64,000 nt of DNA, from the NCBI RefSeq assembly GCF_050320075.1, contig NZ_CP190018.1; one strand, given 5' to 3'. A program made the position numbers and the translations under genes. The notes beneath the pieces are model-generated. The model saw only the letters and a program-made list of their open reading frames with translations, searched no databases and was not told where the DNA came from. The DNA comes from Escherichia coli (lineage in GTDB: Bacteria; Pseudomonadota; Gammaproteobacteria; Enterobacterales; Enterobacteriaceae). Positions 8,658 through 38,985 of this stretch are shown here, piece after piece (the stretch's first letter is position 1; the number at the start of each line of letters is the position of its first letter).

Positions 8658-8950
8658 TATAAATGTCCCATTAAAGCTGGATAAATAAATTGACGGCGGC
8701 ATCGGTAATTTGAGATTCGTTATAATTAAAAACGAACACAGAAAAAATAAGTATAATTTTGGTGAATGTTTTTGACATGATTAAATCCCTTTACTTTATT
8801 TATTTCTGACATAATACGTTACTCCCTTTTATTATTAACGATCTGTTTCTCATTTTTCTTTAAACCTGCCTGTAACAGAATGTTAATAAGACATGATTGT
8901 TGTGGCAGGATCTGCAATAATTAACAATTATCCACTTCACAGAGAATGCT

Positions 8951-9622
8951 ATGCAGTACCCGATTAACGAGATGTTCCAGACCCTGCAAGGTGAGGGTTA
9001 CTTTACCGGCGTCCCCGCCATTTTTATTCGTTTACAGGGATGCCCGGTTGGCTGTGCCTGGTGCGACACCAAACACACCTGGGAAAAGCTTGAGGATCGG
9101 GAAGTCTCCCTTTTCAGCATTCTGGCGAAGACCAAAGAGAGTGATAAGTGGGGGGCGGCGAGCAGTGAAGACTTGCTGGCTGTCATTGGTCGCCAGGGAT
9201 ACACCGCGCGGCATGTGGTGATTACGGGTGGTGAGCCTTGCATTCATGATTTGCTGCCACTTACTGACCTGCTCGAAAAGAACGGTTTTAGCTGCCAGAT
9301 AGAAACCAGCGGTACTCATGAAGTGCGTTGTACGCCGAATACCTGGGTCACCGTGTCGCCAAAGCTAAATATGCGTGGTGGTTATGAAGTATTGTCGCAA
9401 GCCCTGGAGCGAGCTAACGAAATCAAACACCCAGTTGGACGCGTACGTGATATCGAAGCACTGGATGAATTGCTTGCGACGCTGACCGATGATAAACCGC
9501 GAGTCATTGCACTGCAGCCGATTAGCCAAAAGGATGATGCCACACGTTTGTGCATTGAAACCTGCATTGCGCGTAATTGGCGTTTGTCGATGCAAACACA
9601 TAAATATTTAAATATTGCCTGA
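8951..9622 (+). CDS. queE: 7-carboxy-7-deazaguanine synthase (radical SAM) QueE
   Basis: 223-aa ORF with CxxxCxxC-type cluster motif (GCPVGCAWCDTKHTW); adjacent to a CRISPR array as for ygcF/queE. Confidence 0.93.
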   Translation: MQYPINEMFQTLQGEGYFTGVPAIFIRLQGCPVGCAWCDTKHTWEKLEDREVSLFSILAKTKESDKWGAASSEDLLAVIGRQGYTARHVVITGGEPCIHDLLPLTDLLEKNGFSCQIETSGTHEVRCTPNTWVTVSPKLNMRGGYEVLSQALERANEIKHPVGRVRDIEALDELLATLTDDKPRVIALQPISQKDDATRLCIETCIARNWRLSMQTHKYLNIA

Positions 9623-9960: not shown

Positions 9961-11209
9961 GAGTTCCCCGCGCCAGCGGGGATAAACCGTTTGCTGAGTG
10001 TGCATACACACTTGAACATCAGAGTTCCCCGCGCCAGCGGGGATAAACCGCTATCAGTAACAACCTGGTAAATATCGGTTTTGAGTTCCCCGCGCCAGCG
10101 GGGATAAACCGTTTTCGGGGCCATAAATGGCGCTCATTTATGTGAGTTCCCCGCGCCAGCGGGGATAAACCGGGAAAATAAACGCGTTATTCCTTGATGG
10201 GTGCGAGTTCCCCGCGCCAGCGGGGATAAACCGAGCAACAGGTATTTCATATGGCCTGCCGTGCTGAGTTCCCCGCGCCAGCGGGGATAAACCGGCCAGC
10301 GGCGCTGAGTACGACGACCTGATTAAGAGTTCCCCGCGCCAGCGGGGATAAACCGTCAATACAACAGCAATGCTGGAGCTGGAAAAAGAGTTCCCCGCGC
10401 CAGCGGGGATAAACCGTGGTGGGATAGCTGCTCTGCCAGCGTGTCGCGGAGTTCCCCGCGCCAGCGGGGATAAACCGTGGGCGCAGCTCATGTATTCCAA
10501 TAAGGATATGAGTTCCCCGCGCCAGCGGGGATAAACCGAGATTCGCGCAATGTACGGTAAAGACAGCACCGAGTTCCCCGCGCCAGCGGGGATAAACCGC
10601 CATTCTTGTTGTCGTTCATCAAGCGCAGGGGGAGTTTCCCGCGCCAGCGGGGATAAACCGTTTGTTTTGATGATTTATCAGTATATGAATTGGAGTTCCC
10701 CGCGCCAGCGGGGATAAACCGATTTTTGCGCGGCCTGCATGAAACCAGTGGCAAAGTTCCCCGCGCCAGCGGGGATAAACCGGTACCGTTGAGCAATGGT
10801 GGGTAAATGGTGCTGAGTTCCCCGCGCCAGCGGGGATAAACCGATTTAGATACGGCACACAGGAATGCGCTGGATGAGTTCCCCGCGCCAGCGGGGATAA
10901 ACCGCATGGGAGTCCAGATTACAAATTCCAGAATGGGAGTTCCCCGCGCCAGCGGGGATAAACCGCGCCAGTCTGAGGTTTTCCGGTCATACATCGTGAG
11001 TTCCCCGCGCCAGCGGGGATAAACCGACCGTTGCTACACATATGATCAGGCATGTGCCGAGTTCCCCGCGCCAGCGGGGATAAACCGGACGATGAGACGC
11101 CCTGGTGTGCCGCGTTCGTGAGTTCCCCGCGCCAGCGGGGATAAACCGCGTTTAGCTCCGCAATGTTGGATATCACTGATGAGTTCCCCGCACCAGCGGG
11201 AATAAACCA
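9961..11209 (+). CRISPR. CRISPR array A: 21 repeats of 29 bp (gagttccccgcgccagcggggataaaccg) and 20 spacers of 32 bp; terminal repeat degenerate
   Basis: exact 61-bp periodicity with repeat starts at 9961, 10022, 10083 ... 11120, 11181; variant repeats at 10632 (gagtttccc) and 10754 (aagttcc); last repeat gagttccccgcaccagcgggaataaaccac. Confidence 0.98.
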
Positions 11210-11680: not shown

Positions 11681-11800
11681 GGGATAAACCGAACTAGTTA
11701 AAGTTTTTATTATGTTCCCTGCATCAGCGGGGATAAACCGGACTTGTTATCATTTTTTAAGTTGTCGAACTTATGTTCCCCGCGCCAGCGGGGATAACCA
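11681..11800 (+). CRISPR. degenerate CRISPR remnant: one 3' partial repeat plus two decayed repeats, no recognisable leader
   Basis: gggataaaccg at 11681..11691; atgttccctgcatcagcggggataaaccg at 11712..11740; atgttccccgcgccagcggggataacca at 11773..11800, with a 32-bp spacer between the last two. Confidence 0.75.
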
Positions 11801-29132: not shown

Positions 29133-29341
29133 TGCGAGCAGCATTCCTGATTTTAAACGTGAACGCCGCTGGAAGAATTATCAGGTATAGAATGGCGTTG
29201 GGTGCTTGAGGCTGTCTGGCGTTAAGCATTCGCGAGGTTCCAGATGGACAAAAGCCCCAGGCGATATTTCTATCAACCTGAGGCCAGCGTTCGAACCTAA
29301 GCAATTCGAATGTTAGTCTCTTCTTTGCAGGGAGGCAAGAC

Positions 29342-29494
29342 ATGCTGACAAAATATGCCCTTGTGGCAATCATCGTACTGTGTTGTACAGTACTGGGATT
29401 CACGCTGATGGTAGGCGACTCGTTGTGTGAGTTGAGTATCAGAGAACGTGGTATGGAGTTTAAGGCAGTTCTCGCTTACGAATCGAAGAAGTAG
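29342..29494 (+). CDS. hokX: Hok/Gef-family type I toxin peptide (50 aa), hokX-like
   Basis: [50 protein letters not shown]: N-terminal TM helix plus the Hok C-terminal pattern; below the ORF-track size cutoff; GC hairpin follows the stop. Confidence 0.8.
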
Positions 29495-29688
29495 CCACCA
29501 CGCGGGGGTAAAACCCCGCGTATTGAATTGTGATGGTTTGGTCTCCTGCACCCTTTTTTAATTTATATTGTTTATGTGAATATTATGCCTATGTTTATTA
29601 TTCATATATATTACGGATGAAAATTATTTGATTATTCATAATGTAAATATTTTATTGAACGATATATATCACAGATAATTTTTAATAT

Positions 29689-32388
29689 ATGCGTAAATAT
29701 CCTTTAAGTTTACTGAAGGATAAAAATATTGTGACTTTTTTTGATTTCTGGGGAAAAACCCGACGCGGCGAGAAAGACGGGGGCGACGACTATCACCTTC
29801 TTTGCTGGCATTCGCTGGATGTAGCCGCGATGGGCTATTTAATGGTTAAAAGCAATTGCTTCGGGCTGACTGACTATTTTCGTCAACTAGGTTTCGCTGA
29901 TACGGAGCAGGCAGCACAATTTTTCGCCTGGCTATTGTGCTGGCACGATACTGGAAAATTTGCCCGCTCTTTTCAGCAACTTTACCTGCACCCACAACTC
30001 AAGGTTCCGGAAGGCGCAAGAAAGAATTACGAAAAGATCTCTCATTCAACGCTGGGCTACTGGCTGTGGCATCATTATTTAAGTGAATACGAAGAATTGC
30101 TTCCTTCATCTTCACTCTCTCCGCGCAAACTTAAACGGGTGATGGAGATGTGGATGCCCATGACTACCGGGCATCATGGTCGGCCCCCTGACCGTATTGA
30201 TGAACTGGATAATTTTCTGCCTGAAGACAAAGCTGCCGCACGAGATTTTCTCCTTGAAATCAAGGTACTGTTTCCGCTCATCGAGATCCCCGCATTCTGG
30301 GATGATGACGAGGGCATTGAACTTTTAAAACAACTTTCCTGGTATATCTCTGCAACCGTCGTACTCGCAGACTGGACGGGATCGTCAACGCGGTTTTTTC
30401 CACGCGTTGCACAGGCAATGGATATTAAAGATTACTGGCAGAAGGCTTTAGTTCAGGCTCAAAACGCCTTAACCGTCTTTCCTCCAAAAGCACAAACCGC
30501 GCCTTTCACCGGAATTAATACGCTGTTTCCTTTTATTGAGCACCCGACACCGTTACAGCAAAAGGTGCTGGATCTGGATATCAGCCAGCCTGGGCCACAG
30601 TTATTTATTCTGGAGGATGTGACTGGCGCAGGTAAAACAGAAGCGGCGCTTATCCTGGCCCACAGGTTGATGGCTGCGGGGAAAGCACAGGGTTTGTTTT
30701 TTGGCCTGCCAACAATGGCAACGGCCAATGCCATGTACGATCGGCTGGTAAAAACCTGGCTTGCTTTCTATTCGCCAGAATCCCGCCCCAGCCTGGTGCT
30801 GGCACACAGTGCCCGCACATTAATGGACCGCTTTAATGAATCACTCTGGTCCGGTGATTTAGTCGGGTCAGAAGAACCGGATGAACAAGCGTTCAGTCAG
30901 GGATGTGCGGCCTGGTTTGCCGACAGTAACAAGAAGGCGTTGCTGGCTGAAATTGGCGTCGGCACGCTGGATCAGGCGATGATGGCGGTGATGCCGTTTA
31001 AACATAATAATCTGCGGCTTCTGGGACTGAGTAACAAAATCCTGCTGGCTGATGAGATCCATGCCTGTGACGCTTACATGTCGTGCATTCTTGAAGGATT
31101 GATTGAGCGGCAGGCGCGTGGAGGAAACAGCGTTATTTTGCTTTCTGCCACGTTATCTCAACAGCAGCGCGACAAACTCGTTGCTGCCTTTGCGCGTGGT
31201 GCAGAGGGCCAGCAAGAAGCTCCGTTCCTGGAAAAGGATGATTACCCCTGGCTGACGCACGTTACGAAATCGGATGTGCATTCACACCGGGTAGCAACGC
31301 GCAAAGACGTTGAGCGTAGCGTGAGCGTGGGTTGGCTTCATAGCGAACAAGAATGTATTGCGCGTATCGAATCGGCAGTAAGTCAGGGGAAATGCATCGC
31401 CTGGATCCGGAATTCTGTCGATGACGCTATTAAGGTTTATCGTCAGTTGCTTGCCCGCGGCGTCATTCCTGCTTCCAGCCTTTCTCTGTTTCATAGCCGC
31501 TTTGCTTTTAGCGATCGCCAGCGAATTGAAACGGAAACGCTGGCACGCTTCGGTAAAAGTTGTAGTTTACAGAGATCATCGCAAGTCATTGTTTGTACAC
31601 AAGTAATTGAACAAAGTGTGGATATTGACCTGGACGAAATGATATCCGACCTGGCCCCTGTTGATTTGCTGATCCAACGGGCGGGGCGATTACAGCGGCA
31701 TATCCGCGATATTAATGGTCAGTTAAAGCGTGACGGAAAAGACGAGCGTTCCCCTCCTGAATTGCTGATTCTGGCCCCCGTCTGGGACGACGCTCCAGGT
31801 GACGAATGGTTCGGCAGTGCCATGCGTAACAGTGCATATGTCTATCCCGATCATGGACGAATCTGGCTGACGCAGCGTGTACTGCGTGAGCAAGGCGCGA
31901 TTCAAATGCCACACGCAGCCCGCCTTCTTATTGAATCAGTCTACGGTGAGGACGTGGTAATGCCGGAAGGATTTGCCCGCAGCGAGCAGGAACAAGTGGG
32001 CAAATATTACTGCGATCGCGCAATGGCTAAAAAGTTTGTGCTGAACTTCAGGCCCGGCTATGCCGCCAATATCAACGATTACCTCCCGGAAAAACTGTCG
32101 ACACGTCTGGCTGAGGAGTCTGTTTCCCTGTGGCTGTCTACCTGTATTGCCGGTGTGGTGAAGCCTTATGCCAACGGTGCTCACGCATGGGAAATGAGCG
32201 TTGTCAGAGTGCGTCGAAGCTGGTGGAAAAAACATCGGGATGAGTTTTCTTTACTGGAAGGGGATGCGTTCAGGCAGTGGTGCATTGAACAGCGGCAAGA
32301 GCCGGAGATGGCAAACGTGATTTTAGTCACCGATGACGAAAGTTGCGGGTATTCGGCTATGGAAGGATTGACTGGCAAGGTTGGTTGA
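29689..32388 (+). CDS. cas3: Cas3 HD-nuclease/helicase, type I-E
   Basis: 899-aa ORF; N-terminal HD domain, Walker A (EDVTGAGKTEAA), DEIH box (LLADEIHACD); heads the cas operon. Confidence 0.93.
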   Translation: MRKYPLSLLKDKNIVTFFDFWGKTRRGEKDGGDDYHLLCWHSLDVAAMGYLMVKSNCFGLTDYFRQLGFADTEQAAQFFAWLLCWHDTGKFARSFQQLYLHPQLKVPEGARKNYEKISHSTLGYWLWHHYLSEYEELLPSSSLSPRKLKRVMEMWMPMTTGHHGRPPDRIDELDNFLPEDKAAARDFLLEIKVLFPLIEIPAFWDDDEGIELLKQLSWYISATVVLADWTGSSTRFFPRVAQAMDIKDYWQKALVQAQNALTVFPPKAQTAPFTGINTLFPFIEHPTPLQQKVLDLDISQPGPQLFILEDVTGAGKTEAALILAHRLMAAGKAQGLFFGLPTMATANAMYDRLVKTWLAFYSPESRPSLVLAHSARTLMDRFNESLWSGDLVGSEEPDEQAFSQGCAAWFADSNKKALLAEIGVGTLDQAMMAVMPFKHNNLRLLGLSNKILLADEIHACDAYMSCILEGLIERQARGGNSVILLSATLSQQQRDKLVAAFARGAEGQQEAPFLEKDDYPWLTHVTKSDVHSHRVATRKDVERSVSVGWLHSEQECIARIESAVSQGKCIAWIRNSVDDAIKVYRQLLARGVIPASSLSLFHSRFAFSDRQRIETETLARFGKSCSLQRSSQVIVCTQVIEQSVDIDLDEMISDLAPVDLLIQRAGRLQRHIRDINGQLKRDGKDERSPPELLILAPVWDDAPGDEWFGSAMRNSAYVYPDHGRIWLTQRVLREQGAIQMPHAARLLIESVYGEDVVMPEGFARSEQEQVGKYYCDRAMAKKFVLNFRPGYAANINDYLPEKLSTRLAEESVSLWLSTCIAGVVKPYANGAHAWEMSVVRVRRSWWKKHRDEFSLLEGDAFRQWCIEQRQEPEMANVILVTDDESCGYSAMEGLTGKVG

Positions 32389-32485
32389 GATGCCTGCGAC
32401 AGGGCTCTCTGAATAGTTGATACACCGAAAAGGATGGAATGATGGACAACCGACCAGGGATGGTCTTTTTTACGAGAGGATGCGT

Positions 32486-34048
32486 ATGAACTCGTTTTCA
32501 CTTCTGACAACCCCGTGGTTGCCCGTTCGTTATAAAGACGGAACGACAGGCAAACTGGCGCCAGTCGATCTGGCGGATGAAAATGTTGTCGATATCGCTG
32601 CGCCGCGGGCAGATCTCCAGGGGGCGGCATGGCAGTTTTTGCTGGGACTATTACAAACCAGCTTCGCGCCAAAAGATCAACGTCGTTGGGATGATATCTG
32701 GGAAGACGGACTGGAAGCTGAAAAGCTACGGGAAGCATTGCTGTCATTAGACCATGCTTTCCAGTTCGGGCCAGATTCACCTTCATTTATGCAGGATTTT
32801 GAGGCGCTCACGGGAGATAAAGTTCCGGTCGCTTCGCTACTGCCTGAGATTCCCGGCGTTCAAACAACAAAGTTTAATAAAGACCACTTTATCAAGCGTG
32901 GTGTAACGGAACACCTGTGCCCACAGTGTTCTGCACTAGCCTTGTTCTCTCTACAGTTAAATGCGCCGTCAGGTGGCAAAGGCTATCGCACCGGCTTACG
33001 CGGCGGTGGGCCGATGACCACGCTGATTGAATTACAGGAATATCAGGGCAATCAACAAACTCCCTTGTGGCGCAAACTATGGCTCAACGTGATGCCGCAG
33101 GATGAAGCCGACTTACCGCTACCCAAAAAATTTGACGATCTGATTTTCCCCTGGCTAGGCCCGACGCGTACCAGCGAACTGGCCGGTGCGGTGGTAACCC
33201 ATGATCAGGTCAATAAACTCCAGGCGTACTGGGGAATGCCGCGGCGTATACGTATTGATTTTAATACCACGACAGTCGGCAACTGCGATATTTGCGACGA
33301 GCAGAACGACGCGCTCCTGAGCCTGATGACGACCAAAAATTATGGTGCCAATTATGCCATGTGGCAGCATCCCTTAACGCCTTACCGTGTACCACTTAAA
33401 GAGGGGGGCGAGTTTTACTCCGTTAAACCACAACCGGGCGGTTTAATCTGGCGCGACTGGTTAGGCCTTATCGAAACGGGTAAATCAGAAAACAATACGG
33501 AACTTCCCGCGCTGGTGGTGAAACTCTTTAATGCCAGCAGTCTGAAACAGGCAAAAGTGGGCCTATGGGGATTTGGTTATGATTTTGACAACATGAAAGC
33601 GCGCTGTTGGTACGAACACCATTTCCCGCTACTGCTCAATAAAAAAGAAGGCCAGATACCGAAGCTGCGGCTGGCTGCGCAAACGGCTTCACGGATTCTG
33701 AGTCTGTTACGGAGTGCATTGAAAGAAGCATGGTTCTCCGATCCAAAAGGTGCAAGGGGTGATTTCAGTTTTGTGGATATCGACTTCTGGAACAAAACTC
33801 AGCATCGCTTCCTGAGGTTAGTGCGCCAAATTGAAGAAGGTCAGGATGCGGATGAATTACTCGGCAAATGGCAAAAGGAAATTTGGTTATTCGCGCGTCA
33901 GGATTTTGACGAGCGTGTATTCACTAATCCTTATGAGCCCGTTGATTTGAAACGCGTCATGACCGCGCGCAAGAAATATTTTACAACATCGGCGGAGAAG
34001 CAAAGTGCTAAAGCCGCCAGGGAGAAAAAGCAGGAGGCTGCTGAATGA
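32486..34048 (+). CDS. cse1: Cse1/CasA (Cas8e) large Cascade subunit; start taken at MNSFSLLTTPWLP (ORF opens at 32417)
   Basis: position between cas3 and cse2; about 520 aa; N-terminus aligns by eye with the CasA N-terminal pattern. Confidence 0.85.
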   Translation: MNSFSLLTTPWLPVRYKDGTTGKLAPVDLADENVVDIAAPRADLQGAAWQFLLGLLQTSFAPKDQRRWDDIWEDGLEAEKLREALLSLDHAFQFGPDSPSFMQDFEALTGDKVPVASLLPEIPGVQTTKFNKDHFIKRGVTEHLCPQCSALALFSLQLNAPSGGKGYRTGLRGGGPMTTLIELQEYQGNQQTPLWRKLWLNVMPQDEADLPLPKKFDDLIFPWLGPTRTSELAGAVVTHDQVNKLQAYWGMPRRIRIDFNTTTVGNCDICDEQNDALLSLMTTKNYGANYAMWQHPLTPYRVPLKEGGEFYSVKPQPGGLIWRDWLGLIETGKSENNTELPALVVKLFNASSLKQAKVGLWGFGYDFDNMKARCWYEHHFPLLLNKKEGQIPKLRLAAQTASRILSLLRSALKEAWFSDPKGARGDFSFVDIDFWNKTQHRFLRLVRQIEEGQDADELLGKWQKEIWLFARQDFDERVFTNPYEPVDLKRVMTARKKYFTTSAEKQSAKAAREKKQEAAE

Positions 34049-34581
34049 GTATTGTAAAAGAGGAGCACAAAGCCACGCTGCGTAAATGGCACGAAGAGTT
34101 GCAGGAAAAACGCGGCAATCGTGCCAGTCTGCGGCGTAGCACAACGGTTAATGATGTTTGTCTGTCAGAAGGGTTTCGTTCTCTGCTGATGCAGACCCAC
34201 ACTTTGTGGAAAATTGAAGCACAAGAGTGGCGTTTTACCGCACTGGCGCTGGTCGCCGCAGTTAGCGCCAATGTTAAAGCTATTGATGAACGGCAGCCTT
34301 TTGCCGCGCAGCTGGCGGCGGTAATGTCGGAGGGGCGTTTTACTCGCCTGTCGGCAGTAAAAACGCCTGATGATTTACTGCGTCAGTTACGTCGCGCGGT
34401 CAAATTATTAAATGGTTCCGTCAATCTTATCTCTTTGGCAGAAGATATTTTCCGCTGGTGCCAGGAGAGCGACGACCTGCTCAATCATCACCGCCGCCAG
34501 CAGCGGCCAACAGAATTTATCCGTATCCGCTGGGCGCTGGAATATTACCAGGCTGGCGACGCCGATAACGAACAAAATTAA
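34045..34581 (+). CDS. cse2: Cse2/CasB small Cascade subunit
   Basis: 178-aa ORF overlapping the cse1 stop by 4 bp; Arg-rich helical protein in the expected operon position. Confidence 0.85.
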   Translation: MSIVKEEHKATLRKWHEELQEKRGNRASLRRSTTVNDVCLSEGFRSLLMQTHTLWKIEAQEWRFTALALVAAVSANVKAIDERQPFAAQLAAVMSEGRFTRLSAVKTPDDLLRQLRRAVKLLNGSVNLISLAEDIFRWCQESDDLLNHHRRQQRPTEFIRIRWALEYYQAGDADNEQN

Positions 34582-34595
34582 TAAAGGACTATCTC

Positions 34596-35651
34596 ATGAC
34601 GACATTTATTCAGCTTCATTTGTTAACCGCTTACCCTGCTGCCAACCTTAACCGTGATGACACCGGTGCGCCAAAAACTGTGGTACTGGGTGGAGCAACG
34701 CGTCTGCGCGTTTCCTCACAAAGTCTGAAACGTGCGTGGCGCACTTCTGCACTTTTTGAACAGGCACTGGCGGGCCATATTGGTATTCGCAGTGGGCGTA
34801 TTGCGCGTGAGGCGGCAACTATCCTGATTGAGAAAGGCATCGAAGAGAAAAAAGCCATCGAATGGGCGGCAAAAATTGCGGATTATCTTGGGAAAGCTAA
34901 AAACGACAAAAAACCAAAAGATCCGCTCACTAACGCCGAAACTGAACAGCTAGTCCATATCAGCCCGGCAGAATTTGACGCCGTAAAAGCGCTGGCCCAT
35001 CAACTGGCCGAAGAAAAGCGCGCGCCAAAAGAGGAAGATCTCGCTTTGTTACGTAAAGATCGCATGGCGGTAGATATCGCTATGTTTGGTCGTATGCTGG
35101 CGAATAAACCCGAATTTAATGTTGAAGCCGCCTGCCAGGTCGCGCATGCATTTGGTGTCAGTGAAACGATTGTCGAAGATGATTTTTTCACCGCCGTTGA
35201 TGATTTGCGCCAGGCTTCTGAAGATGCCGGTGCCGGGCATCTTGGTGAAACCGGATTCGGTTCTGCGCTGTTCTACACCTATATCTGCATCGATAAAGAT
35301 CTGCTGGTCGAAAACCTCGGCGGTGACGAAGCGTTAGCTAATCAGACCTTGCGCGCCTTTACGGAAGCCGCACTTAAAGTCTCCCCAACCGGCAAACAGA
35401 ACAGCTTTGCCAGCCGTGCCTACGCCTCCTGGGCGCTGGCAGAAAAAGGCACTGAACAACCACGCTCTCTGGCGGCGGCTTTCTATGAACCCATTAATGG
35501 CACCCGGCAGTTAGATGTGGCGGTGCAGCGTATTACAACGCTTCGCGAAAATATGAATACGGTCTATGAACAGAAGACCGAATGCGCAAGCTTTGACGTG
35601 ATGAACAAACAGGGAAGCATGAAGGACGTGCTGGACTTTATCTGCGCGTAA
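34596..35651 (+). CDS. cas7: Cas7/CasC Cascade backbone subunit
   Basis: 351-aa ORF MTTFIQLHLLTAYPAANLNRDDTG... (RAMP-like N-terminus); operon position. Confidence 0.88.
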   Translation: MTTFIQLHLLTAYPAANLNRDDTGAPKTVVLGGATRLRVSSQSLKRAWRTSALFEQALAGHIGIRSGRIAREAATILIEKGIEEKKAIEWAAKIADYLGKAKNDKKPKDPLTNAETEQLVHISPAEFDAVKALAHQLAEEKRAPKEEDLALLRKDRMAVDIAMFGRMLANKPEFNVEAACQVAHAFGVSETIVEDDFFTAVDDLRQASEDAGAGHLGETGFGSALFYTYICIDKDLLVENLGGDEALANQTLRAFTEAALKVSPTGKQNSFASRAYASWALAEKGTEQPRSLAAAFYEPINGTRQLDVAVQRITTLRENMNTVYEQKTECASFDVMNKQGSMKDVLDFICA

Positions 35652-35661
35652 GGGGCGGCTA

Positions 35662-36408
35662 ATGAGCCAATATTTGATTTTTCAGCTTCATGGGCCAATG
35701 GCATCCTGGGGCGTCGATGCCCCCGGCGAAGTGCGTCATACCCATGAACTGCCTTCGCGCTCAGCATTGCTGGGGCTGCTGGCTGCCGGGGTAGGGATTC
35801 GGCGTGATGATACCGAACGATTAAACGCGTTTAACAGCCACTATTCACTGGTGGTTTGCGCCAGCCGTAACCCGCGCTGGGCACGGGATTATCACACGGT
35901 CCAGATGCCAAAAGAGGTGCGTAAAGCGCGTTATTTCAGCCGTCGCGAAGAGTTGAGCGCCCCTGATCTTCTGAGCGCGATTATCTCCCGGCGCGACTAC
36001 TACACCGATGCCTGGTGGATGGTGGCGGTGGCAACAACCCCCGATGCGCCTTACAGGCTTGAACAGTTGCAGGACGGTTTACGTCATCCGGTTTTTCCGC
36101 TTTATCTGGGGCGAAAAAGTCATCCGCTGGCGTTACCACTTGCGCCGTTACTGCTCGAAGGCAACGCGTCTGATGTCTTACGTAACGCATACCAACAGTA
36201 TCAGGATAGTTTCCGCGAACTGAAAGTCTCACTCCCGAAACTTCAGGATGAATGCTGGTGGGAAGGGGAACACGACGGCCTGGTCGCGAGCAAAATATTA
36301 CGTCGCCGGGATGTTCCTTTAAATCGTCAGCAGTGGCTGTTTGGGGAACGCACCATCAATCAGGGGCCGTGGCTCAGCAAGGAGGAACCATGTACCTCTC
36401 AAGAATAA
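35662..36408 (+). CDS. cas5: Cas5/CasD Cascade subunit
   Basis: 248-aa ORF MSQYLIFQLHGPMASWG... (Cas5e N-terminal pattern); operon position. Confidence 0.88.
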   Translation: MSQYLIFQLHGPMASWGVDAPGEVRHTHELPSRSALLGLLAAGVGIRRDDTERLNAFNSHYSLVVCASRNPRWARDYHTVQMPKEVRKARYFSRREELSAPDLLSAIISRRDYYTDAWWMVAVATTPDAPYRLEQLQDGLRHPVFPLYLGRKSHPLALPLAPLLLEGNASDVLRNAYQQYQDSFRELKVSLPKLQDECWWEGEHDGLVASKILRRRDVPLNRQQWLFGERTINQGPWLSKEEPCTSQE

Positions 36409-37036
36409 CCTTACATACCGGCCAGCTTTCGCCTGCGCAGTTGCTGCATCTGGTGGATCGCGGTGAATATGTAATGCATCAGTGGCTGTGGGATCTTTTT
36501 CCTGGCGGCAAAGAAAGGCAATTTCTTTATCGTCGGGAAGAACTCCAGGGGGCGTTTCGCTTTTTTGTCCTGTCGCAGGAACGCCCGGCGGAAAGTGATA
36601 TTTTCACCATCGAATGCCGACCATTTGCGCCAGAGTTGCGTACCGGACAATCCCTTTGTTTCAACCTGCGGGCGAATCCAACAATTTGTAAAGCGGGCAA
36701 ACGCCACGACTTGCTGATGGAGGCGAAACGGCAGGTGAGGGGGCAGGTGGAAGGAAGTGATGTCTGGTTGCATCAACAACAGGCGGCGCTGGACTGGCTG
36801 GCAGCGCAGGGGGAAAGAAGCGGTTTTACACTACTGGATACCTCGGTCGATGCCTACCGACAACAGCAACTGCGGCGGGAAAACTCCCGGCAACTGATCC
36901 AGTTCAGTAGCGTGGATTATACGGGGATGCTTACGGTCACCGATCCTGGGTTATTTCTGCAACGTCTGAGCCAGGGGTATGGCAAAAGCCGCGCGTTCGG
37001 CTGTGGTCTGATGCTGATCAAACCCGGAGCAGAGGC

Positions 37037-37040
<4 letters not shown>
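36390..37040 (+). CDS. cas6e: Cas6e/CasE pre-crRNA endoribonuclease; start at MYLSRITL preceded by aggagg
   Basis: 216 aa; the MYLS start matches the Cas6e N-terminus as I recall it; C-terminal G-rich loop GYGKSRAFGCGLMLI; overlaps the cas5 stop. Confidence 0.88.
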
Positions 37041-38250
<1,210 letters not shown>

Positions 38251-38346
38251 GTTATCTGTTCTTTAAAAATAAGGAAATGTTTTAATTTAGTTGGTAGATT
38301 GTTGATGCGGAATAAATTTGTTTAAAAACAGTTATGTATGCTTAGT
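38251..38346 (+). promoter_or_regulatory. CRISPR leader for the cas-adjacent array B (AT-rich; agttggtagattgt motif at 38289..38302)
   Basis: AT-rich region between cas2 and the first repeat; shares motif and 58-bp spacing with the leader of array A. Confidence 0.75.
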
Positions 38347-38985
38347 GTGTTCCCCGCGTCAGCGGGGATAAACCGACAATCAGATCACGATCGATGCCTC
38401 GCGTGAGGTGTTCCCCGCGTCAGCGGGGATAAACCGATTTTCGCAGCGGGTAACCGCGCCCGGCGATCGTGTTCCCCGCGTCAGCGGGGATAAACCGTTT
38501 ATGTGGAGTATCAGTGCCTGGGTGGAAAGGTGTTCCCCGCGTCAGCGGGGATAAACCGTGGGGCTGAGCATGGCTAAACAACCGAGGCGCGTGTTCCCCG
38601 CGTCAGCGGGGATAAACCGGTCAACTGGCACCACAGGATGATGGCGGCGAAGTGTTCCCCGCGCCAGCGGGGATAAACCGCAGGTCGACCGACTGGAGGC
38701 GGAGATTGTCGGGTGTTCCCCGCGCCAGCGGGGATAAACCGTGTTGTTTTTCTGCCGGATTAACGCGGTGCGAGTGTTCCCCGCGCCAGCGGGGATAAAC
38801 CGTTGTCGGGCTTGTTCGGCGCGGGTTGTTAACTGTGTTCCCCGCGCCAGCGGGGATAAACCGCCAGCGAAGGACTTGCTCGTGTGGTTAAAGCCGTGTT
38901 CCCCGCGTCAGCGGGGATAAACCGGACGCACTGGATGCGATGATGGACATCACTTGGAGTTCCCCGCCCCTGCGGTAGAACTCCC
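38347..38985 (+). CRISPR. CRISPR array B: 11 repeats of 29 bp (gtgttccccgcg[t/c]cagcggggataaaccg), 10 spacers of 32 bp; terminal repeat degenerate
   Basis: 61-bp periodicity with repeat starts at 38347, 38408 ... 38896, 38957; last repeat gagttccccgcccctgcggtagaactccc. Confidence 0.98.

Follow-up and report, generated by a model that had tools for sequence, protein, structure and literature searches.

The CRISPR-Cas locus analyzed here, from Escherichia coli, is a type I-E system of the cas-E1 (O157:H7-type) variant, in which cas3 and cse1 (casA) are separated by only 97 bp. This short gap is the normal, already described layout of the commonest CRISPR-Cas variant of E. coli; it is annotated in thousands of genomes, and the locus is an ordinary representative of the variant. 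Judging from its sequence and from those of related loci, we consider it rather probable that the whole block from cas3 to cas2 forms a single operon under the control of sequences that precede cas3.

The sequence analyzed was a 64,000-nt window (the entire stretch of DNA under study; assembly GCF_050320075.1, contig NZ_CP190018.1) with a G+C content of 51.4%. NCBIfam models and the list of ORFs revealed a complete set of I-E cas genes, arranged as cas3-cse1-cse2-cas7-cas5-cas6e-cas1-cas2 and all intact. Equivalog or exception models passed the cut-off for seven of these eight genes, and cas3 was identified by models of its HD and helicase domains. The window also carries two CRISPR arrays, one with 10 repeats and the other with 20. 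The one located beside cas2 (38347..38924, + strand) is preceded by an AT-rich leader (38251..38346, + strand) and was found, in a pattern search, to contain 10 exact copies of GTGTTCCCCGCGYCAGCGGGGATAAACCG with a spacing of 61 bp.

Several features identify the variant, which was named cas-E1 by Almendros et al. (2014; PMC3903273) and cas-EO, after O157:H7, by Diez-Villasenor et al. (2013; PMC3737337): (i) the E1-specific primer cas3E1-R (TCGTCGCCCCCGTCTTTCTC), whose sequence is given in PMC3903273, has its reverse complement (GAGAAAGACGGGGGCGACGA) as an exact match at positions 29770-29789, in the 5′ part of cas3, (ii) a hok/sok toxin-antitoxin module (29200..29495, + strand) is located between cysH and cas3, where PMC3903273 places it in every strain except the carriers of E2, and (iii) all 10 repeats of the array beside cas2 (within 38347-38924) begin with GTGTTCCCC, which corresponds to the A-type repeat of cas-E1, given in PMC3737337, where the repeat types are defined, as ...GGGGAACAC, i.e. 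GTGTTCCCC... on the + strand. The hok/sok module was recognized from an Rfam match to sok (RF01794; 29200..29357; 111.7 bits) and from the hok coding sequence (29343..29495, + strand), which coincides with a Hok/Gef CDS annotated by RefSeq in the matching E. coli genomes.

No structural difference was found between the locus of the window and cas-E1; the primer site, the upstream hok/sok module, the position after cysH, the A-type repeats and the 97-bp gap are common to both. The accessible portions of PMC3903273 and PMC3737337 contain neither a discussion of the cas3-cse1 spacer nor a promoter map of E1. The segment 29300-34100 was matched, over at least 80% of its length, in 2416 of 5426 complete E. 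coli genomes, with 90.7-100% identity among the matches listed, O157:H7 and other E. coli E1 genomes included; K-12 strains share with this segment only the first ~45 nt of its flank.

The cas3 gene was identified as a 2700-nt ORF (29689..32388, + strand) ending with a TGA stop codon at 32386-32388. Its conserved start is probably GTG 29731 rather than the annotated ATG 29689: in the alignment, a GTG or TTG codon is kept at the former position across genera, and indels of 1-2 nt occur between the two codons in E. albertii and Escherichia sp. The cse1 gene (32486..34048, + strand) encodes a 520-aa protein that matches TIGR02547 over residues 5-509 (E value 1.6e-182). Its start is assigned, on comparative grounds, to ATG 32486 because (i) the match to TIGR02547 begins at residue 5, (ii) the N-terminus so defined aligns with those of the Salmonella, Citrobacter and Phytobacter proteins, (iii) the same start is annotated by RefSeq in O157:H7 and five other strains, each with a 97-nt gap, and (iv) a Shine-Dalgarno sequence, GAGAGG (32474..32479, + strand), lies 6 nt before the ATG and is invariant in 10 of 10 Escherichia sequences. 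The remaining genes, cse2, cas7, cas5, cas6e, cas1 and cas2 (34045..38250, + strand), all matched NCBIfam equivalogs and either overlap or are separated by no more than 15 nt.

A preliminary description of this DNA had placed the cas3 stop codon (32388) less than 100 bp from the cse1 start (32486), and the ORFs, the homology and the RefSeq annotation agree with it: the spacer comprises 97 bp (32389..32485, + strand). It had also mentioned an alternative start about 30 bp from cas3. The cse1 reading frame is indeed open from TTG 32417 in the ORF list, but this codon is a mechanical ORF start that is not conserved, and it was rejected; an indel whose length, 8 bp, is not divisible by three breaks the frame between TTG 32417 and ATG 32486 in E. 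albertii and Escherichia sp., whose cse1 frames are open only from 36 nt and 93 nt upstream of the ATG, respectively. The in-frame ATG 32480 was likewise rejected, as it is missing in O157:H7 and not conserved.

The corresponding region of K-12, which carries cas-E2, occupies the same place between cas3 and cse1/casA of an I-E locus at the same chromosomal site. In the K-12-derived genome used for comparison, cas3 ends at 8801 and casA begins at 9216 (locus positions), which gives a gap of 414 bp with a G+C content of 29.5%, whereas the gap of the window comprises 97 bp with 49.5% G+C, and its AT-rich tract lies before cas3. The two spacers have no detectable similarity, as blastn-short returned only chance matches of 9 nt. 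The contrast with K-12 drawn in the preliminary description is therefore real, and the K-12 region is far from being equally short. According to PMC12968389 and PMC7074321, which cite Pul 2010 and Westra 2010, the K-12 cas3-casA region contains the Pcas promoter, LeuO sites, an H-NS site and anti-Pcas, the last of these being an antisense promoter (PMC7074321). The LeuO/LrhA control elements of Pcas occupy positions between about -116 and +55 relative to the start of transcription (PMC12968389), and since this extent exceeds 97 bp, a control region of the K-12 extent cannot fit in the E1 gap. The claim that a K-12-style control region is missing thus stands in so far as no long AT-rich cas3-casA intergenic region of the K-12 type occurs in the window; a lack of room for such a region is, however, not the same as a lack of any promoter. 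The K-12 model, with which E1 is contrasted, comprises a separate Pcas, LeuO sites and anti-Pcas, as well as Cas3 that is limiting in Δhns cells.

The region upstream of cas3 had been described as very AT-rich, which is correct: the G+C content of 29530..29688 is 22%, compared with 51.4% for the window, and this is the only strongly AT-rich tract of the locus. On the basis of its composition and its promoter-like matches, the tract 29530..29730 (+ strand) is a candidate promoter and H-NS-type silencing region of the cas block. Upstream of cas3, promoter-like matches on the + strand reach a density of 12.9 per 100 bp, compared with 2.0 for the gap and 0.65 for the body of cas3; the top match in this upstream region is TTAATT(29558)-17-TATTAT(29581). 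The count of the high-affinity H-NS motif TCGATAAATT was uninformative, as a score of zero was obtained even for the K-12 spacer, a known target of H-NS. A strong hairpin (29497..29525, + strand; -18.4 kcal/mol and z -3.7 for the 36-nt segment that includes it) follows hok; it is probably the terminator of the hok mRNA, and in this role it would insulate cas3 from upstream transcription.

Comparison of related loci revealed an association between the length of the gap and the position of the AT-rich tract. A gap of at most 97 bp was found in eight loci, including those of E. coli E1, E. albertii, Escherichia sp., C. youngae, Phytobacter and two Salmonella, and in all eight the 100 bp preceding cas3 have a G+C content of 16-28%. 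The shortest gaps mentioned here, of 11 bp, are those of Salmonella cas-STM, Citrobacter youngae and Phytobacter ursingii. Where the gap is at least 400 bp (K. spallanzanii, Atlantibacter, Chimaeribacter and K-12), the AT-rich tract lies inside it, with a minimum of 18-30% G+C, and where it is 151-170 bp (Intestinirhabdus and K. indica), the tract is found in neither place. This pattern favours, without proving, an operon led by cas3. Distant homologs of Cse1 encoded in Methanosarcinales contigs are preceded at -4 to +13 nt by a long ORF which, from its length, may be cas3. Because these homologs follow the upstream ORF so closely, tight linkage of cas3 and cse1 looks ancestral, and inserts of several sizes appear to have arisen independently.

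The closest experimentally studied homolog of the locus is cas-STM of Salmonella enterica (Kushwaha et al. 2020; PMC7712790). Its Cse1 protein is 73-74% identical to that of the window, and its genes follow each other in the order seen here, with cas3 and cse1 contiguous on a single strand, as has already been described (PMC7712790), and with an AT-rich sequence before cas3. The two loci differ in their upstream neighbour, which is sopD in cas-STM and hok/sok in the window, and in the length of the gap: 11 bp in cas-STM, whereas Escherichia has ~86 bases more, with a hairpin, a U6 run and a new Shine-Dalgarno context. Deletion of cas3 in S. Enteritidis increased the expression of all downstream cas genes about 7-20 fold, that of cse1 most (PMC7168661), and a 2026 preprint treats cas3 as a member of the cas operon of S. 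Typhimurium. These observations on cas-STM indirectly support, by analogy, a cas3-led operon in E1.

The cas-STY locus of S. Typhi resembles the present one in being a type I-E system of an enterobacterium with cas promoters silenced by H-NS. Five transcription units have been mapped in it, together with a LeuO-dependent cse1 promoter and control by LeuO, H-NS and Lrp, as summarized in PMC8039139 (Medina-Aparicio 2011, 2017). Its cas3 gene, however, is on the opposite strand, 357 nt from cse1 (PMC7712790). S. Typhi was therefore ruled out as a case in which cse1 has its own promoter in spite of a very short gap, and its promoter map is not transferable to E1, because cas-STY is a different variant with a divergent and distant cas3. 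The difference between contiguous and separated cas3 genes is thus already on record for Salmonella. The literature searched yielded no usable transcription start data for cas3 or cse1 of E1, O157 or Salmonella, and no RT-PCR or transcript map of an E1 locus; the searched passages of a paper on H-NS in K. pneumoniae (PMC4987720) contain no promoter mapping.

Of the 5426 complete E. coli genomes, 2424 have the 97-bp spacer and 1114 that of K-12, so E1 is the majority architecture among the genomes that have the system. The gap is identical in length across all E1 genomes examined, and the spacer is single-copy, which rules out that it is a dispersed repeat or the remnant of a mobile element. 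About 86 of its 97 bases, located directly after the cas3 stop codon, are missing in Salmonella, Citrobacter and Phytobacter (11-bp gaps), and by this comparison they are an Escherichia-specific addition to an otherwise tight arrangement. No Rfam family was detected in the spacer, the upstream sok being the only match, and the fold of the whole spacer is not unusual (z +0.13).

Across eight E. coli genomes, the nucleotide diversity of the spacer is 0.039, and that of its distal 45 nt is 0.029. The diversity at third codon positions of the same genomes is 0.098 in cas3 and 0.188 in cse1, i.e. 2.5-5 times higher than in the spacer. The distal 45 nt, which are near-invariant, also persist in L046, a more distant relative with a Cse1 of 85% identity. 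These values point to a spacer under constraint, strongest in the segment composed of the U-run and the Shine-Dalgarno sequence. U-rich tracts that precede a Shine-Dalgarno sequence are known to enhance translation, which offers an ordinary explanation for the conservation of the distal segment; the T6 tract, like GAGAGG, is invariant in 10 of 10 Escherichia sequences. The reduced diversity relative to third codon positions extends over the full length of the spacer, beyond the Shine-Dalgarno sequence alone, and a cis-regulatory role in addition to translation initiation is therefore possible.

It might be argued that the spacer itself is without regulatory function and is a remnant of insertion or slippage, tolerated in a largely silent locus and conserved only through recent ancestry or recombination. 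The spacer contains three copies of GATGG, and the 8-bp indel lies between GATGG repeats; moreover, cas3 is a pseudogene in two of five further E. coli genomes, and the diversity of the spacer is merely at the 28th percentile among 97-bp windows across cas3-cse1. We nevertheless regard this explanation as very improbable in view of the lower diversity than at third codon positions of the adjoining genes, the retention of the distal 45 nt in L046, and the intact cas genes and two arrays of the window.

Detailed inspection of the spacer revealed a promoter-like site of the extended -10 type (32417..32443, + strand), composed of TTGATA (32417; 5/6 match to the sigma-70 consensus), a spacing of 15 bp and TGg AATGAT (32435-32443; 4/6). 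Its score of 9.45 bits, obtained with a position weight matrix that was built for this analysis, is uncalibrated and did not use the position of K-12 Pcas as a positive control, corresponds to the 99.93rd percentile of all window positions and is exceeded by no other + strand match within the 600 bp preceding cse1. The same scan gave no match above the 99th percentile on the - strand with a -10 element inside the gap. If the site were a functional sigma-70 promoter, with a start near 32450, cse1-cas2 would be transcribed independently of cas3, just as in K-12, but the control region would be compact and not rich in A+T. This reading agrees with the rank of the match, with the conservation of the -35 sequence in 9 of 10 Escherichia sequences, and with the diversity of the spacer, which is lower than that of third codon positions. 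It appears unlikely all the same: a spacing of 15 bp is suboptimal, the third base of the poorly matching -10 element varies among the eight E. coli genomes (AATGAT, AAAGAT and AAGGAT), and a stricter consensus scan did not report the site. In addition, E. albertii and Escherichia sp. lack the element owing to a deletion of 8 bp that spares the remainder of the gap, and the entire segment is absent from Salmonella, Citrobacter and Phytobacter.

The consensus scan also reported a weak terminator-like hairpin (32452..32471, + strand; GACCA-GGGA-TGGTC followed by T6) with a stem of five pairs, three of them G-C. Located downstream of the cas3 stop codon, it could be a working intrinsic terminator, in which case cas3 would be monocistronic and the Cascade and adaptation genes would need a promoter in the gap or in the 3′ end of cas3. 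The GACC and GGTC arms, in common with the T6 tract, are invariant in the 10 Escherichia sequences, as this reading would expect; being invariant, however, these four pairs are uninformative on whether the stem is maintained. In 6 of the 10 sequences an A-to-T change disrupts the fifth pair without any compensating change, so that the stem was not found to be maintained by conserved pairing or compensatory substitution, and in L045, a more distant relative, the T-run is interrupted. The predicted energy is only -7.0 kcal/mol (z -1.9; equalled by 9 of 200 shuffled sequences), compared with -18.4 kcal/mol for the hairpin following hok. Furthermore, the U-run lies directly before the Shine-Dalgarno sequence and can also be explained by translation initiation, and no good promoter-like site is present downstream of the hairpin, the sole candidate in the gap being one that would start just upstream of it. 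We therefore give little credence to termination at this position.

The preliminary description had further proposed the single cas3-to-cas2 operon. The AT-rich tract remains the best candidate for its control region, and the pattern in the relatives agrees with the proposal. Promoters can lie within coding DNA, and since the gap is, moreover, constrained and holds both a promoter-like and a weak terminator-like element, the operon itself is something that we infer. In such an operon, transcription of cse1-cas2 would take place mainly by read-through from one or more promoters within 29530..29730, and this tract would be the only H-NS-type target of the locus. The last ~45 nt of the spacer, with U6 and GAGAGG 6 nt before the ATG, would constitute the translation initiation region of cse1, and the low diversity of the spacer, lowest in its distal 45 nt, fits a constraint of this kind. 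Any influence of the hairpin with its U6 run, or of the promoter-like site, would be confined to adjusting the amount of cas3 transcript relative to that of the downstream genes. The split seen in K-12 would give way to joint regulation of Cas3, Cascade and Cas1-Cas2.

A broader interpretation is possible, although we consider it doubtful. It states that in E1 the silenced control region has been moved before cas3 so that the nuclease, Cascade and the adaptation genes form one H-NS-gated unit, that the conserved, Escherichia-specific spacer, with its weak hairpin, U6 run, Shine-Dalgarno sequence and perhaps a minor promoter, tunes the ratio of Cas3 to Cascade, and that the K-12 model is exceptional within E. 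coli. To our knowledge, the regulation of CRISPR-Cas in E. coli has been studied almost wholly in K-12. This strain carries the minority variant cas-E2, and the carriers of the E1 spacer include O157:H7 and many other clinical strains. The regulation of the majority variant of E. coli is a real but modest question. If E1 is indeed one cas3-led unit, the findings made in K-12 on the LeuO/LrhA sites, on anti-Pcas and on limiting Cas3 would not be applicable to most natural isolates.

The two cas genes separated by the 97-bp spacer (32389..32485) appear to have different histories in one of the comparison loci, L043 (E. coli GCA_048123965.1). The Cse1 protein of this locus is only 83% identical to that of the window, and third-position identity falls to 68% in cse1, while cas3 (88% at third positions) and the spacer itself (97% identity) remain close to their counterparts in the window. 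This pattern fits recombination of the Cascade module, a process reported by Almendros 2014 (PMC3903273), with a putative breakpoint at the spacer or just 3′ of it.

Homologs of cse1 were also found outside the Enterobacteriaceae. In contigs of Methanosarcinales archaea (L025-L034, L037), the predicted proteins share 37-40% identity with the E. coli cas-E1 protein, and each gene is located directly 3′ of a long ORF (910-940 aa), which suggests that the I-E lineage represented by E. coli cas-E1 may have moved between domains. Another locus (L003; JAIJJM010000114.1), labelled as a Collinsella sp. MAG, contains cas3 and cse1 separated by 97 bp, as in the window, and its Cse1 is 97% identical to that of the window; this is almost certainly a mis-binned E. 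coli contig.

Of five further E. coli genomes carrying cas-E1 that were examined, two, STEC435 (L047) and MINF_7C (L049), contain a cas3 pseudogene according to their annotation, with either an internal stop or a frameshift, and cse1 is intact in both. In strain Ecol_545, which is 100% identical, an IS421-family element is inserted within the region.

The window contains two CRISPR arrays, which differ in their repeat variants: (i) an array of 20 repeats starting GAGTTCCCC (9961..11148), to which a degenerate repeat copy at 11712 also belongs, and (ii) an array of 10 repeats starting GTGTTCCCC (38347..38924), which adjoins cas2 and for which Tandem Repeats Finder reported just 2.5 copies.

The annotated start of cas3 (ATG 29689, + strand), also used by RefSeq (899 aa), is probably wrong, and alignment favors a conserved GTG at 29731. 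Similarity across genera begins only from this codon, and each of the eight genomes in the alignment has either GTG or TTG at the position. The stretch between the two codons carries a 2-nt deletion in E. albertii, and a 1-nt insertion separates the two positions in Escherichia sp. The first 14 codons from the ATG are AT-rich and resemble the upstream tract. The product initiated at the GTG would probably comprise ~885 aa, compared with 887 aa for Cas3 of Salmonella.

Approximately 50 nt 5′ of the conserved GTG lies a partly conserved block, ATATCACAGATAAT (29660..29690), in which a hexamer resembling a -10 element reads GATAAT in E. coli and TATAAT in Phytobacter. This block is a candidate promoter core of cas3. 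If cas3 starts at GTG 29731, its AT-rich leader reaches ~29730.
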